Virus record (IMG/VR): IMGVR_UViG_2939521961_000009
From: a virus
Taxonomy: Duplodnaviria > Heunggongvirae > Uroviricota > Caudoviricetes
DNA: 64,000 bases
Direction: 5' to 3' (one strand)
Part shown: piece after piece, positions 30,232 through 60,266 of the stretch
Layout of the letters: each line of letters opens with the position of its first letter
How positions within the stretch are numbered: position 1 is the stretch's first letter
Notes under the pieces: model-generated
Database searches by the model: none
Seen by the model: the letters and a program-made list of their open reading frames with translations, nothing else
Told to the model about the DNA's origin: nothing
Position numbers and translations under genes: made by a program

Positions 30232-30792
30232 TTATTTTTCCGAAACGCTCGCAGGATAATAACGATAAAGGGTTGAAAGACCGATATCAAAAATAAGTGC
30301 CACCTGTCTTCGACTGACACCCCCGGCCAGTAAACGCCCGACCTGCTCGTATTGTTCCTGCGTGAGACGGCGGGGTCTGCCGCCGGTTCGTCCCCTTTCA
30401 CGGGCAGCTGCAAGACCAGCCCGTGTCCGTTCGACAATTAATTCACGCTCCATTTCTGCCAGCGCACCCATTATGTGAAAAAAGAAACGCCCCATGGGGG
30501 TTGACGTATCAATGTTGTCAGTAAGACTACGAAAATTTATCCCCTGTTGCTGTAATTCATCTGTCAGCGCAACAAGGTGGCGCATACTGCGCCCCAGCCT
30601 GTCCAGTTTCCAGACCATCAGTGTGTCACCGGGTTTTAGTTTCTTCAGTGCCCGCTTCAGTCCCGGCCGCTGTGTCGTTTTACCACTCATTTTGTCTTCA
30701 AAAATCTGCTCACATCCTGCACATTCCAGCGCATTTCTTTGTAAACCGGTGTTCTGGTCATTTGTTGATACGCGTATATAGCCAATCAGCAT
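30232..30792 (-). CDS. gin: Serine DNA invertase Gin/Hin family, 186 aa
   Basis: MLIGYIRVSTNDQ catalytic N-terminus; close to recalled Hin/Gin; adjacent to invertible tail-fibre segment. Confidence 0.9.
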   Translation of the reverse strand: MLIGYIRVSTNDQNTGLQRNALECAGCEQIFEDKMSGKTTQRPGLKRALKKLKPGDTLMVWKLDRLGRSMRHLVALTDELQQQGINFRSLTDNIDTSTPMGRFFFHIMGALAEMERELIVERTRAGLAAARERGRTGGRPRRLTQEQYEQVGRLLAGGVSRRQVALIFDIGLSTLYRYYPASVSEK

Positions 30793-30847
30793 GTATTTAC
30801 CTTCCTTAAAAAGAGGTGAAAATGCCTTTTAAAACAGATATACGGTA

Positions 30848-30873
30848 TCCCTGAAAACCTCGGTTTACGGGAA
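30848..30873. promoter_or_regulatory. gix/hix-like recombination site (TCCCTGAAAACC-TC-GGTTTACGGGAA)
   Basis: 26-bp imperfect palindrome matching the recalled 12-2-12 invertase site. Confidence 0.55.
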
Positions 30874-31218
30874 ACGGTAAATAAGGCGGCGAATGCCCTG
30901 CCATCGAACGGAACGGCTGTTGCAGCGAATAAACTCGCCACTCCAAGAAATATTAATGGTGTCCCATTTGACGGAACGCAGGATATAAATATTACATCGG
31001 GGATGACGCAGTCTGTGGCTGACTCACGTTATGTTCAAAGCATTCGAAGAGGTTCAAGGTCAACGATTGGAATGCAATATAATATTTTTGAAGTTCCTGA
31101 CGGATGCGTACTTACAGGGCTTGATGTCGCTGGTGATGGTAATGCAACGGTAACCGCATATTATCGACCTGTTCAGTTTCTGATAGATGGTTCGTGGAAA
31201 ACAGCTTCCAGCGCATAA
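30874..31218 (+). CDS. Silent alternative tail-fibre C-terminal cassette (Sv'-like); no start codon of its own
   Basis: Open frame from the gix site; first about 50 aa about 85% identical to the matching region of the expressed S gene, then a divergent tip. Confidence 0.55.
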   Translation, partial: TVNKAANALPSNGTAVAANKLATPRNINGVPFDGTQDINITSGMTQSVADSRYVQSIRRGSRSTIGMQYNIFEVPDGCVLTGLDVAGDGNATVTAYYRPVQFLIDGSWKTASSA

Positions 31219-31297
31219 AAGTGCAGTAGTTCAAAAAACAGATTATCTGAATAAATATATGATGATTTTGTCTTTTCAACAAAAACAAGGTGAAATA

Positions 31298-56132: not shown

Positions 56133-56684
56133 TCATGGCGTTAACTCCCGTAATACAGCGTCCTCGGCAGTCCGGCGATGGTGATAAATAAAATTCACCG
56201 TACTCTCGGATAATTCAAATTTCTCGCCTATTTCCCGGAAGGTAAGACGTCGTGGTGATTCAGCATCCCGTAATTCACGAATAAGATGAACATCATCGTC
56301 AGGTATACGGGTGAAGGGCAGCAATTCTCCGTATTTTTTCATGCTTACGCCAATATATCGCGCCCGATTGTGGACAGAATCCCGGTCTCGCCCCAGATAT
56401 TCTCCTATTTGCTTACCGGTCATCGTTCTGGCATTTTTTCGGATAAATTTATCTTCATCATGTTTAAATCTTGGACGTTTGCATTTGAGCAACTCCGGGT
56501 AAGTACCGCGTAATAAAACAATCCGGTTATGTACACCCCAGAAACTTCTTTTTACCCTGACAGCAATATCCTTAACCGGGGTGGATGGATAAAGCGCAAT
56601 CAGCAGCGCATCTTCTTCAGGTGTCCACGCACGGACATGAGCAGGTGCCTGACCTTTTCGCCCCATGGGTTGTAAAATCATCAT
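56133..56684 (-). CDS. Hypothetical DNA-binding protein with Myb/SANT-like motif (WTPEEDALL) and two HTH-like segments, 183 aa
   Basis: Motifs read from translation. Confidence 0.5.
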   Translation of the reverse strand: MMILQPMGRKGQAPAHVRAWTPEEDALLIALYPSTPVKDIAVRVKRSFWGVHNRIVLLRGTYPELLKCKRPRFKHDEDKFIRKNARTMTGKQIGEYLGRDRDSVHNRARYIGVSMKKYGELLPFTRIPDDDVHLIRELRDAESPRRLTFREIGEKFELSESTVNFIYHHRRTAEDAVLRELTP

Positions 56685-56687
56685 ACA

Positions 56688-57203
56688 TCACCCCCTGACT
56701 CGCTTTTCAGCAGCATAAAACTCATCAGACAGAATTTCGGTCATTTTCTGATTTGCGGGTTTTACGCCGCACTCAAGGTAAATCACATCGTCAACGCAGA
56801 ACCACTTCACAGGGCCAAACATGATTGCCGAGAAATCAATACCCAGCCAGAACAACAGTGCATCGGTTCTGGCATACGTGACGGGCGAATATTCACGCCA
56901 CAGACTGTTAAGTTCGTCAGAGGCAACGCGCAGGGCTTTGGGAATACGTGATGTGCGCGGTGTGCAGCTCCAGCCATTCGACGCAGTCGGTTTTCGCCAT
57001 AAGTCGCGATGAAAAGGATATTTGTCATCCATAAAGCGCAGCCCTTTAAAACAAAAGCCACTGATACCGGATACAAATACCGACCGGCACGCAACATTCA
57101 GCACGGCCTCAAGGCGTTTTGCCTCATCCTTAACTTTCTGGCAGTCCTGCTGATATTTTTGCCACGCGGCCAGCGCGGAAGGGTTTGATGTTTTAAAGAA
57201 CAT
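56688..57203 (-). CDS. Hypothetical protein, 171 aa
   Basis: Start overlaps upstream stop; operon register. Confidence 0.45.
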   Translation of the reverse strand: MFFKTSNPSALAAWQKYQQDCQKVKDEAKRLEAVLNVACRSVFVSGISGFCFKGLRFMDDKYPFHRDLWRKPTASNGWSCTPRTSRIPKALRVASDELNSLWREYSPVTYARTDALLFWLGIDFSAIMFGPVKWFCVDDVIYLECGVKPANQKMTEILSDEFYAAEKRVRG

Positions 57204-57736
57204 TACGCCACCTCCGCAGATATCCCGGCAGGCGCGGCCGTCCGGTCAACAATCAGGTAACGCAGAACGCGCGAGGTGATATTCCAGCCGCTTAAACCGC
57301 AGATAATGACACCCAGGCGTATGTCGATATACGCCATCACAAACTGGGGCACGCCTTCTTTCATGGCCTGCTCATCAACTTCAGCCACCACATAAACGGT
57401 TTCACAGGTCAGAACGCCCTGAGCAAATTCCCACGCCATTGACGGAATATCATGCCCCTCAATCCACGGCAGGGATTTTCTGAAGCTGCACCACTGAACA
57501 TCATCAGCCGCACCTTCCTGGCTGCATTTGCGACGAACCGGCTGCACCGGGCGGGGACGCGGAATATCATAAAAACCGTTACATTCCGTCAGCACCCCGG
57601 CATCGACCGCATCACGCAGAAAATAAACCATCGAGGATGGCGGCATATTCATTTTTTCAGCCAGAATGCCGCAGGTCAGACGCCCGTAAATACTCAGCCA
57701 GTTTTTAACCCCTTCAAGCACTTTTGCATCAATCAT
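57203..57736 (-). CDS. Hypothetical protein with possible N-terminal winged-helix, 177 aa
   Basis: Operon register. Confidence 0.45.
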   Translation of the reverse strand: MIDAKVLEGVKNWLSIYGRLTCGILAEKMNMPPSSMVYFLRDAVDAGVLTECNGFYDIPRPRPVQPVRRKCSQEGAADDVQWCSFRKSLPWIEGHDIPSMAWEFAQGVLTCETVYVVAEVDEQAMKEGVPQFVMAYIDIRLGVIICGLSGWNITSRVLRYLIVDRTAAPAGISAEVA

Positions 57737-57739
57737 GAA

Positions 57740-58282
57740 TTATTCCTCCGTCAGCGCCACATATTCAGAATGTTTAATCTCCTGGCATTCTTCAGGAATA
57801 CCCCCTTTTATTTCCCTGCCATAAGCGCCTACTTTAAACACCACGCACAGGGCATCACGGGAGAGCGACGGGGTCCACCAGGAGTCCATGTTAAACATGG
57901 AGGGGATTCTCATTACCCCCAGCTTTTCACAGAGCCAGACAAGGAAATCAGGACGCTTTCTTAACTCGCGTTCAGCGGCTTCAATCATTGCGGCAATCGC
58001 CGGTCCTTCAGGGCATGACTCATCAGGTCTGGCAATAAAGCACGGTCCGTCCCCGATAAAAGCCACATCATCGCGCTTACGCCAGCCCGCAGGCAGAGCA
58101 CCAGAAAAATAAAACTCACTGATTACGTCCATGGCAAACGGCTTTAAGCGCAATCCGGCAGCGCCTGTATTTTTCAGTAATGCCCGAAGAATACTGTTGC
58201 GTAGCGGTAAAACAGTCTGTTGATATTTGGTGAAATATTTATTTGTCTGCACACGGTCTAATTTGAAATAAAAATATGCCAT
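57740..58282 (-). CDS. Hypothetical protein, 180 aa
   Basis: AAGGAACAGG RBS before the ATG; first gene after gam. Confidence 0.45.
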   Translation of the reverse strand: MAYFYFKLDRVQTNKYFTKYQQTVLPLRNSILRALLKNTGAAGLRLKPFAMDVISEFYFSGALPAGWRKRDDVAFIGDGPCFIARPDESCPEGPAIAAMIEAAERELRKRPDFLVWLCEKLGVMRIPSMFNMDSWWTPSLSRDALCVVFKVGAYGREIKGGIPEECQEIKHSEYVALTEE

Positions 58283-58379: not shown

Positions 58380-58910
58380 TTATTTATTCAGTCCGGCGTC
58401 CTGTTCAAAAGGCTCGACATAAAAACTTTCAGCGCCTTTATTCACCTTAATACCGGCAATGCCTTTCACTGCATCCGGCTCCGCCAGGACCGCTTCCTTG
58501 TTCACTTCCTCTTTCGTGCGGATGAATCGCTCAAGCCCCATACGGCGCAGCATTTCAATCACACCTTCCACATCACGGCTGACGCTGCATGATGGATTTC
58601 CCAGCCGCCATGATACTGTTCCGGTGGTCAGATTGGCTGTTTTGGTTTTGCCGCCGTTCGTCAGCTCATCGCGGTTGGTTTTGCACCAGTCCTGAATCCC
58701 CTTAAAAAGCACTTTGATTTCTTTTTTAAGGTTTTCAATCTGCGGCGTATAACGGGCGGTGATTTCTGCCACTTCATCATTCATCGCCGTTTCCAGCCGC
58801 AGCGCCTCTCGCTGAATATCGCCCAGGGTACGGATATCGCGGCTGACTTCTTCGCGGGTCTGCGGTGCAGCCTCGGCTGCGGCCTTTAATTTTGTAACAC
58901 GTTTAGCCAT
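58380..58910 (-). CDS. gam: Gam host-nuclease inhibitor (Mu Gam-like), 176 aa
   Basis: Close match to recalled Mu Gam (…LETAMNDEVAEI…DELTNGGKTKTANL…FIRTKEEVNKEA…). Confidence 0.85.
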   Translation of the reverse strand: MAKRVTKLKAAAEAAPQTREEVSRDIRTLGDIQREALRLETAMNDEVAEITARYTPQIENLKKEIKVLFKGIQDWCKTNRDELTNGGKTKTANLTTGTVSWRLGNPSCSVSRDVEGVIEMLRRMGLERFIRTKEEVNKEAVLAEPDAVKGIAGIKVNKGAESFYVEPFEQDAGLNK

Positions 58911-58921
58911 TTTGTTTTTCC

Positions 58922-59215
58922 TTATTGCAGTGTGCCTGATGCTTTATGCACGCGGTGGCGTTTAATGATGGCATCCGCCCCAAAAGCCTGTACAGATGCC
59001 TGAAATTCCGCTGAGAGAAACTGAATAATTTCAGGACTGTGATACTGGAGAATACTTGCATAAACGTCACAGAGTGACGTCGGCCTGTTATTCGTATCAC
59101 GTTCTGTTTTTACATCCACACCAATCTTTTCATGCACTTCAACACAGTCATTGCCTGCCGGTTTTTCGTCATGCGAAACATGCTTAAATTCAAAAATAAC
59201 GCGTACTTTGCTCAT
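58922..59215 (-). CDS. Hypothetical small protein, paralogue of the next gene (start taken at MSKVRVIFEFKHV)
   Basis: Shared N-terminus MSKV.R.IFE.K with the adjacent ORF. Confidence 0.45.
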   Translation of the reverse strand: MSKVRVIFEFKHVSHDEKPAGNDCVEVHEKIGVDVKTERDTNNRPTSLCDVYASILQYHSPEIIQFLSAEFQASVQAFGADAIIKRHRVHKASGTLQ

Positions 59216-59219
59216 GGAA

Positions 59220-59492
59220 TTACCCCTGCTGATTAAATTCATTACCTTTAATAACCCCGGAACGCATGCTCATATCTTTCATGAGCGCACTGGCTTTCAT
59301 TGCCACAAGTTCAGCAAAGTCTCTGCTTTCCGCGAGCATAACCACCCCAAAAATCATGGCGGGTCCATCACCTTTCTGCTTTATCCCGGTTGAACGTATG
59401 TCCAGACTTACCCCCATGCGCACTGTTCCATCAGCGTTTTTATGGATAACGTGCTCCTTGTATTCGAAAATAATGCGTACGACTTTACTCAT
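59220..59492 (-). CDS. Hypothetical small protein, 90 aa, paralogue of the previous gene
   Basis: Shared N-terminus; tandem arrangement. Confidence 0.45.
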   Translation of the reverse strand: MSKVVRIIFEYKEHVIHKNADGTVRMGVSLDIRSTGIKQKGDGPAMIFGVVMLAESRDFAELVAMKASALMKDMSMRSGVIKGNEFNQQG

Positions 59493-59770
59493 CCTCTGGT
59501 CCTCGTTCTGTTTGGATAACTGACCCGGCGTCTGACCTCACGGCAGAACCGAATCATGGCATTAAAGGCTTCTTCCTCCGTCACCGCTTCCGGTATCCCC
59601 GGAACCAGTAACTGCTCCTGTTCATCACGTCCATGACGCGCCATAACCTCAATCACATGCCGTACCGTGGCAGGCTTTCCGGCAACTATCGGCAATGCAC
59701 CTTCCGGCAGGACGTAACCAAACTCAATAAGACCACTCGACCACGCCCATGCAATGAGATTTTTTTTCAC
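59489..59770 (-). CDS. Hypothetical protein, 93 aa
   Basis: Operon register. Confidence 0.45.
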   Translation of the reverse strand: MKKNLIAWAWSSGLIEFGYVLPEGALPIVAGKPATVRHVIEVMARHGRDEQEQLLVPGIPEAVTEEEAFNAMIRFCREVRRRVSYPNRTRTRG

Positions 59771-59771
59771 C

Positions 59772-60038
59772 TCACACCTCCCAGTAAACCGTGCAGCCGC
59801 TGATGCGGGTGGCCTTCACACGGCGGCGCAGGCCGTTGGTCTGTATGGTGATTTCAATTTCACCGGTTCCCTGCACGTTGCCTACCGGCGGCGTGGTTTT
59901 CAGTGCAAAACGTTGCGGATAGCGCTTACTGCGTTCCAGTACCGCACCGGCAAGTTCGGTCAGACGGCGCGCGCTGTTCAGGGAGTCGAATAAATTCATT
60001 TTGTTACCGCAGGATTGCATATTCATATAACACCTCAT
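59772..60038 (-). CDS. Hypothetical protein, 88 aa (start uncertain)
   Basis: Operon register. Confidence 0.4.
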   Translation of the reverse strand: MRCYMNMQSCGNKMNLFDSLNSARRLTELAGAVLERSKRYPQRFALKTTPPVGNVQGTGEIEITIQTNGLRRRVKATRISGCTVYWEV

Positions 60039-60266
60039 TTAGCTGACTTGTTTCGCACCAACAGAACGGCATATTCCGCTGTAAACGTCTGTCGCACCTT
60101 CGCGATCAAGTCCGGCAGATATCACCATTCGTGTGCGGTCATTAAATTCAAAAAGAAAATCGCCACATTCTTTATTTTCGGCCAGTGAAATCACCTTCAC
60201 GTTATCGAAATTAACCAGGTAAAAGCGTCCGTAAATATCAGGAATATTAAATACCGCCATAATCAC
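60039..60266 (-). CDS. Small protein at the position of Mu kil, 75 aa
   Basis: Immediately downstream of B, overlapping its stop; assignment is positional only. Confidence 0.4.
   Translation of the reverse strand: MIMAVFNIPDIYGRFYLVNFDNVKVISLAENKECGDFLFEFNDRTRMVISAGLDREGATDVYSGICRSVGAKQVS

Follow-up and report, generated by a model that had tools for sequence, protein, structure and literature searches.

A tandem pair of diverged paralogous early genes directly upstream of gam in a Mu-like prophage of Escherichia coli

Two adjacent genes in the slot before gam

The 64,000-nucleotide (nt) stretch of DNA analyzed herein (IMG/VR virus record IMGVR_UViG_2939521961_000009; hereafter the window) ends with a Mu-like Escherichia coli prophage, which occupies its last 38 kb and reads on the minus strand. 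The early operon of this prophage contains two adjacent small open reading frames (ORFs) encoding proteins of 90 and 97 amino acids (aa), designated orf90 and orf97, which are placed on the minus strand in the order 93-aa gene, orf90, orf97, gam (Table 1). The RefSeq annotation of an identical prophage lists the same two coding sequences (CDSs), both as hypothetical proteins. The gam gene, whose product is 57% identical to Mu Gam, starts 11 nt 3' of orf97. An interpretation made from the letters alone (the sequence-only reading) had described the two ORFs as diverged tandem paralogs immediately upstream of this gene, and both the ORFs and their arrangement were found to be real.

The stop codon of the 93-aa gene overlaps the start codon of orf90 (ATGA), and the Shine-Dalgarno-like AGGGG of orf97 is situated inside the end of orf90, suggesting that orf97 is probably translationally coupled to orf90. 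An alternative orf97 of 106 aa could begin at an upstream ATG at 59242; the MSKV start was preferred because it is supported by the family alignment. As no promoter-like or terminator-like site was found on the minus strand between B and gam, with promoter-like sites located upstream of ner, we infer that both genes belong to the early transcript. One orf90 allele (locus L014, 4001-4003) starts with GTG instead of ATG, with the upstream Shine-Dalgarno-like sequence unchanged.

The two proteins share the N-terminus MSKV(V)R(I/V)IFE(Y/F)K, in which 12 of 17 residues are identical (BLASTP, E = 9e-4), and the 5' ends of the genes have approximately 30 of 33 nt in common. For profile comparison, the orf90 family was represented by 21 sequences, all from E. 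coli and 76-93% identical to orf90. The orf97 family initially comprised 8 E. coli sequences and, after an exhaustive HMMER and profile search, 85 full-length sequences from E. coli, Salmonella, Serratia, and Klebsiella with identities down to 15%. The match between the two families in hhalign improved as the orf97 profile became deeper, from 33 columns with 8 sequences (E = 7e-6) and 66 columns with 14 sequences (E = 3.4e-6) to 75-76 columns with 85 sequences (E = 1.3e-6 to 2.8e-7, probability 91-93%). The real pair scored 40.3, compared with at most 15.9 in 30 column-shuffled controls and 9.3 in a reversed one, and nine other operon proteins used as controls gave E values of at least 0.037. 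Upon removal of the first 13 residues from both families, an in-register alignment was still obtained (E = 3.6e-5; shuffled maximum 13.1), and a plain hidden Markov model (HMM) of orf90 matched the single-copy members of Salmonella and Klebsiella at E of approximately 5e-6. Since the alignment persisted without the N-terminus, these profile comparisons identified orf90 and orf97 as true paralogs, homologous along nearly their whole length at approximately 8-16% identity. The sequence-only reading had the two proteins sharing an N-terminus and then diverging; the common N-terminus proved to lie beyond chance and the subsequent divergence to be strong, whereas the relatedness is not lost there. 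Residues 1-11, the part that the sequence-only reading had recognized, were the most conserved segment of the whole family, showing the lowest per-column entropy in the 85-sequence alignment.

Although no family could be named from the letters alone, orf90 was placed in phrog_4107, aligning over residues 1-90 with all 90 positions of the profile (E = 1.1e-61), and orf97 in phrog_2230, aligning over residues 3-97 with positions 1-88 of the 89-position profile (E = 1.3e-40). The PHROGs database keeps these two families separate and labels both as "unknown function"; the pair was accordingly not found to consist of conserved core genes of known function in Mu-like phages, neither gene having a known function. 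Linking phrog_4107 and phrog_2230 as one superfamily, as the profile alignments propose, is new but incremental, and so are the fold model and the copy-number history described below.

The family was tiny, with 11 representatives at E of 1e-3 or lower among 1.84 billion cluster representatives, and the named matches of a wider profile search came from E. coli, Salmonella, Serratia, and Klebsiella. All the orf90 homologs found were from E. coli (at least 73% identity), and those of orf97 were from all four of these genera, with dozens of family clusters in Salmonella that were 26-40% identical to the E. coli protein. In every genomic context examined, which was always a Mu-like early operon, a member resided in the same slot. 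The arrangement orf90-orf97-gam occurred in 41 E. coli loci, and a single member lay between kil and the gene for a Gam or DUF3164 protein in nine loci (Salmonella, Serratia, Klebsiella, and IMG/VR), with a homolog of the 93-aa gene sometimes between kil and the family member and sometimes not. The family is confined to Mu-like prophages of Enterobacterales, in a fixed early-operon slot. Given the two copies in E. coli and the one in other genera, orf90 is a lineage-specific extra copy. Presence and absence across Mu-like prophages, which the sequence-only reading had singled out as informative, differed between the two genes: orf90 was missing in one prophage, and an orf97-family member occupied the slot at all loci examined in the four genera, so that orf97 does not come and go. 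Of 5426 complete E. coli genomes, 232 contained the 601-bp stretch with the pair in identical or near-identical form; Shiga-toxin producers accounted for many of these, and the stretch was also present in two Shiga-toxin (Stx) phage records bearing an inserted Mu-like phage.

In some Mu-like prophages of Salmonella and Klebsiella, a 212-aa DUF3164 protein was encoded at the gam position (L045, 5303-5941; L067, 4303-4941), with the upstream family member and the downstream homologs of gp11 and gp12 retained; this protein may be a functional replacement of Gam. The adjacency to a nuclease inhibitor pointed out in the sequence-only reading thus holds as a position before gam, but the pair is linked to Gam by location only, since loci that lack Gam have the DUF3164 protein after this slot.

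Evolutionary rate and origin of the second copy

Among unique E. coli alleles, the ratio of nonsynonymous to synonymous substitution (dN/dS) was 0.29 for orf90 (mean dN 0.064) and 0.36 for orf97 (0.141), versus 0.10 for B (0.014), 0.09 for kil (0.025), 0.13 for the 93-aa gene (0.011), and 0.09 for gam (0.017). Both orf90 and orf97 are real genes under purifying selection, evolving several-fold (about three times) faster than their neighbors. In the case of orf97, two allele types approximately 60% identical in protein were found within flanks that were 94-100% identical, so that recombination has left a sharply bounded mosaic that does not extend beyond this one gene of 290 bp (L004, 3286-3579; L008, L015, L021, L024, L025, L039, and L042). 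These rates and mosaic alleles were in good agreement with the description of the pair as variable genes in the sequence-only reading. The orf97 allele types pair freely with orf90 alleles of 79-100% identity. An obligate, co-evolving orf90-orf97 heterodimer was also considered, and it was disfavored by this free combination of alleles and by the single copy in other genera.

As to how the second copy arose, the end of the 93-like gene and the single copy overlap in Salmonella, an arrangement that E. coli shows for orf90. The ancestral upstream junction, i.e., the overlap with the 93-aa gene, is therefore kept by orf90, and the ancestral downstream junction with gam is kept by orf97, which is the pattern that a tandem duplication leaves. 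In the prophage of strain CI5, the orf90-type upstream sequence was fused directly to orf97 at the shared 5' codons, and orf90 was missing. This contiguous junction, seen once in approximately 230 genomes, is most simply a deletion across a short direct repeat.

Instead of having been duplicated in place and then diverged fast, orf90 could have entered from another Mu-like lineage as a highly divergent allele, recombination stacking it next to the resident gene and the 5' ends being gene-converted later; we regard this origin as a serious possibility, if less likely than not. It is consistent with the finding that, outside the first approximately 12 residues, orf90 was equally far (8-21% identity) from all subgroups, its neighbor included (8-13% versus the neighbor and 9-21% versus the members from Salmonella, Serratia, and Klebsiella), and that SK-V-R and FE[FY]K, the residues common to only the two E. 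coli copies, were limited to the short 5' stretch. Moreover, the 5' end is conserved at the codon level across the family and could be a recombination site, and it is at exactly this repeat that the CI5 prophage joins the orf90 upstream junction to orf97. However, no single-copy prophage with an orf90-type allele was found in any collection, the junction pattern is predicted by simple tandem duplication, and fast divergence after duplication would explain the equal distances equally well. A purely recent gene-conversion tract was not needed to account for the shared 5' end, as the codons GTT ATT TTT are conserved also in the single-copy genes of Salmonella and Klebsiella; gene conversion of the E. 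coli-specific 5' residues is possible.

Predicted structure and possible function

In the AlphaFold2 model of orf97, built on the 85-sequence alignment (predicted local distance difference test score [pLDDT] 85, predicted template modeling score [pTM] 0.71), residues 4-21 and 24-39 form a long beta-hairpin, helices then span residues 48-58 and 60-77, and the tail is disordered. The corresponding model of orf90, derived from a shallow alignment and unreliable at a pLDDT of 53, contained the same hairpin and a C-terminal helix. The fold was predicted to be a small two-layer unit in which the long hairpin is backed by the two helices. Hydrophobic residues alternate along the entire hairpin, of which the two short helices can cover only a part, so that dimerization appeared plausible from the monomer model, and dimers burying the free face of the hairpin would be the most likely form. 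Conservation was highest in the first half of strand beta1 and in the helices, and lowest in the distal hairpin, the loop preceding helix 1, and the tail. The median isoelectric point (pI) was 9.2 (basic) in the orf90 family and 5.8 (mildly acidic) in the orf97 family. In Salmonella, many clusters (P0142-P0161) were 63-82 aa long and lacked strand beta1 (e.g., MKEKRFRGGVE...); these short versions look like genes with a frameshift or a new start, pointing to frequent decay of the gene in prophages that are resident.

Scans of orf90 and orf97 against Pfam, NCBIfam, and PADLOC gave no match (Pfam and PADLOC at E of 1 or lower), nor did Pfam scans of 14 family members, and a profile search of the PDB returned nothing under E = 0.17. 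The orf97 model had no informative structural match, and no Mu protein was obtained in a Foldseek search of BFVD; two-layer alpha/beta sandwich modules, namely the M20 peptidase dimerization domain, the ACT domain, the RNA polymerase alpha N-terminal domain, and phage tail terminators, are among the known systems that come nearest. In the alignments, neither a conserved pattern of Cys/His residues nor a membrane segment or a signal peptide was seen. A literature search yielded no publication on the accessions or the PHROG ids, and nothing relevant on anti-defense functions of Mu-like early regions.

The early regions of Mu-like phages are less conserved than their late regions (PMC4553209), and no family member was detectable in canonical Mu or its close relatives. 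No classically mapped function has been assigned to the interval between kil and gam in Mu, and neither orf90 nor orf97 matched Kil (PF26843/phrog_2679), Gam (PF07352), GemA, or Mor. Nevertheless, with the semi-essential early genes of Mu (kil, gam/sot, arm, cim, lig, gemA, and mor) the pair shares the operon, the timing, and the small accessory character, and orf90 and orf97 belong among the small, fast-evolving accessory genes of this Mu-type region. The uncharacterized early protein gp7 of Mu (E6, 87 aa, phrog_10252), likewise encoded between kil and gam and similar in size and place, has an N-terminus of the same style (MAKVIIEIKN), followed by a hydrophobic helix-like stretch in the same register, and it matched phrog_2230 marginally (E = 0.009). 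As a canonical-Mu counterpart, however, gp7 is unproven, having passed none of the profile tests: a 12-sequence gp7 family aligned with either family at E of only 0.25-0.37 in hhalign, and hmmsearch gave E of approximately 7; in addition, gp7 is encoded two genes from gam, whereas orf97 adjoins gam.

Our preferred interpretation, which we advance as a tentative one, is that orf90 and orf97 are non-enzymatic early accessory binding proteins that combine a conserved scaffold with a variable surface and act at the phage-host interface. In such a scheme, the early promoter would drive both genes as part of one transcript within minutes after infection or prophage induction. Their products have neither a catalytic motif nor a metal site and lack membrane segments and signal peptides; they would probably bind another macromolecule stoichiometrically. 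The first half of beta1 and the two helices would serve as the scaffold, and specificity would reside in a hypervariable surface made up of the distal hairpin, the C-terminal tail, and the loop that precedes helix 1. That the genes evolve fast and as a mosaic, and that one lineage has an extra copy, would fit an accessory role at the phage-host interface such as neutralizing or re-directing a variable host factor, and the second copy, being of opposite charge, may address a different target or target variant. The host-interaction function that the sequence-only reading had proposed for the pair is likewise something that we infer from the evolutionary pattern and the genomic context.

Small phage inhibitors that act by binding include anti-CRISPRs, Ocr, lambda Gam, and the proteins Tip and Aqs1 of Pseudomonas Mu-like phages. 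The pair resembles these inhibitors in being small, early, devoid of an enzymatic motif, narrow in taxonomic range, fast-evolving, and variable in copy number, but no sequence or fold similarity to any inhibitor of solved structure was detected. With a mildly acidic orf97 family and a basic orf90 family, neither protein looks like a classical DNA mimic. Should the proposed role be true, Mu-like prophages would have in this slot a specificity module that is compact and readily exchanged; prophages of this type are common in Shiga-toxin-producing E. coli, and the pair would be a cheap candidate for anti-defense or host-takeover screens. An extension of this idea, which is speculative and on the whole unlikely, would regard the proteins as a new fold class of early "adaptor" of Mu-like phages, whose helix-backed base carries a hypervariable beta-arm disabling a variable host immunity or DNA-repair factor. 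The E. coli slot would then have come to hold two copies, one basic and one acidic, for two targets or target variants, and the conserved 5' codons would mark the boundary of a recombination cassette for the swapping, stacking, and deletion of alleles. As it stands, the locus is a well-documented pair of hypothetical early genes that offers no surprise; what has been gained is the merging of two PHROG families, a confident fold model, and a description of distribution, copy-number history, and evolutionary rate.

Several observations weigh against a role at the phage-host interface. The dN/dS values are below 1, so that positive selection is not demonstrated, and an equal average would result from relaxed constraint. 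A phage-internal role fits equally well with the strict synteny that orf97 shows with the gene for Gam or the DUF3164 protein, both the dimerization and the "variable arm" depend on a predicted monomer model, and the model of orf90 is poor. The N-terminal truncations common in Salmonella also hint that resident prophages can often do without the gene.

The main competing explanation, a phage-internal accessory factor that acts with the Gam or DUF3164 protein, or with MuA/MuB, in replicative transposition or end protection, orf90 being redundant or modulating, seemed unlikely to us. A member lies directly upstream of the gene for Gam or the DUF3164 protein at every locus examined in four genera, is tightly packed into one transcription unit, and is kept under purifying selection, as would be expected of such a factor. 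In contrast, Mu and its close relatives, in which the family is undetectable, transpose normally, and the family stays in place while its neighbor alternates between the unrelated Gam and DUF3164 proteins. Relative to synonymous change, moreover, the pair outpaces gam and B three- to fourfold, and truncated forms are frequent in Salmonella.

A benefit to the lysogen, whether by protection against other phages (superinfection exclusion or defense) expressed from the prophage or by a toxin-antitoxin-like pair, was judged improbable. Although the proteins are small, variable, and prophage-borne, and the two paralogs are oppositely charged in net terms, their genes, for which no separate promoter-like site was found, lie in the middle of the early lytic operon, and in Mu-type phages this operon is repressed in lysogens. 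Furthermore, no PADLOC match was obtained, the single copy in other genera argues against an obligate pair, and the alleles of orf90 and orf97 assort freely.

Finally, it is extremely improbable that the N-terminal likeness reflects chance or a shared translation-initiation signal in two unrelated or non-functional ORFs: pairwise BLASTP finds only 17 residues and A/T-rich codons are common near start codons, but the 75-column profile alignment stands well above its controls, also without the N-terminus, and the ORFs are intact across alleles down to approximately 26% (orf97) and 73% (orf90) identity at dN/dS well below 1, so that chance similarity of orf90 and orf97 is excluded.

Surrounding genes and prophage setting

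The coordinates of the pair and its surroundings are summarized in Table 1.

Table 1. Features of the orf90-orf97 locus and its surroundings in the 64,000-nt window.
Feature	Coordinates	Strand	Remarks
orf90, upstream paralog	59220-59492	-	90 aa; basic (pI ~9.4); MSKVVRIIFEYKEHV...; RefSeq CDS WP_000049432.1
orf90 5' end	59457-59492	-	First 12 codons MSKVVRIIFEYK; first direct-repeat arm; start of predicted strand beta1; DNA alignment, allele codon table
Shine-Dalgarno-like GAGGACCAGAGG	59493-59504	-	Upstream of orf90, within 3' end of 93-aa gene; sequence reading
orf97, downstream paralog	58922-59215	-	97 aa; near-neutral, family mostly acidic; MSKVRVIFEFKHV...; RefSeq CDS WP_000049304.1
orf97 5' end	59183-59215	-	First 11 codons MSKVRVIFEFK; second direct-repeat arm; DNA alignment, allele codon table
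Shine-Dalgarno-like AGGGG for orf97	59223-59227	-	In last orf90 codons (..CAG GGG TAA), 7 nt before orf97 ATG
ner-like gene	63368-63634	-	Early operon
MuA gene	61267-63357	-	Early operon
MuB gene	60263-61195	-	Early operon
75-aa gene	60039-60266	-	Early operon
Kil-like early gene	59772-60038	-	phrog_2679; weak match to Mu Kil (E = 1e-4); orthologs with Pfam Kil_protein
93-aa early gene	59489-59770	-	phrog_1518 (PHROGs label "host nuclease inhibitor"); without match in Pfam or NCBIfam
gam	58380-58910	-	Mu Gam-type DNA-end-binding host-nuclease inhibitor; PF07352, E = 1.5e-41
180-aa gene	57740-58282	-	Directly 3' of gam
Mu gp11 and gp12 homologs	57203-57736, 56688-57203	-	Early operon
183-aa gene	56133-56684	-	"DNA-binding protein"; four genes downstream of gam
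Partial tail-fiber gene, tail-fiber assembly gene, and Gin-like gene	30232-31242		Gin-like recombinase family gene at 30232-30792
Com-family regulator gene	26750-26950		Mu-type right end
245-aa gene	26059-26796		Mu-type right end
Lambdoid portal gene, truncated	~24565-25929		Annotated without N-terminus
Late region of mEp460-like lambdoid phage	1712-24000		~97% identity

The 93-aa gene was present in some E. coli Mu-like prophages and was represented elsewhere by a remnant of approximately 75 nt of its 3' end (e.g., in L014 and CI5); in Salmonella and Klebsiella, homologs with 48-54% identity are found ahead of the single family member. On the other side of gam, the 180-aa gene constitutes another variable slot: across 41 related loci, its product was either 92-100% identical, swapped for an allele of approximately 24% identity, or absent, and its mean dN/dS of 0.58 was the highest of the region. 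The 183-aa protein encoded farther downstream is related to Mu gp9/E8 (30% identity across 103 residues, E = 3e-9), whose gene lies directly upstream of gam in Mu, indicating that the order of the early-region genes has been reshuffled between the two phage types.

The Mu-like prophage was found to be inserted inside another prophage within the window. The lambdoid late region is followed by the truncated portal gene, directly after which comes the Mu-type right end, with the 245-aa gene and the gene for the Com-family regulator. This prophage-in-prophage arrangement agrees with the "inserted Mu-like phage" annotation of the two Stx-phage records. Within the Mu-like part, the Gin-like recombinase family gene adjoins the partial tail-fiber gene and the tail-fiber assembly gene, and this stretch is the usual invertible host-range segment of Mu-type phages.
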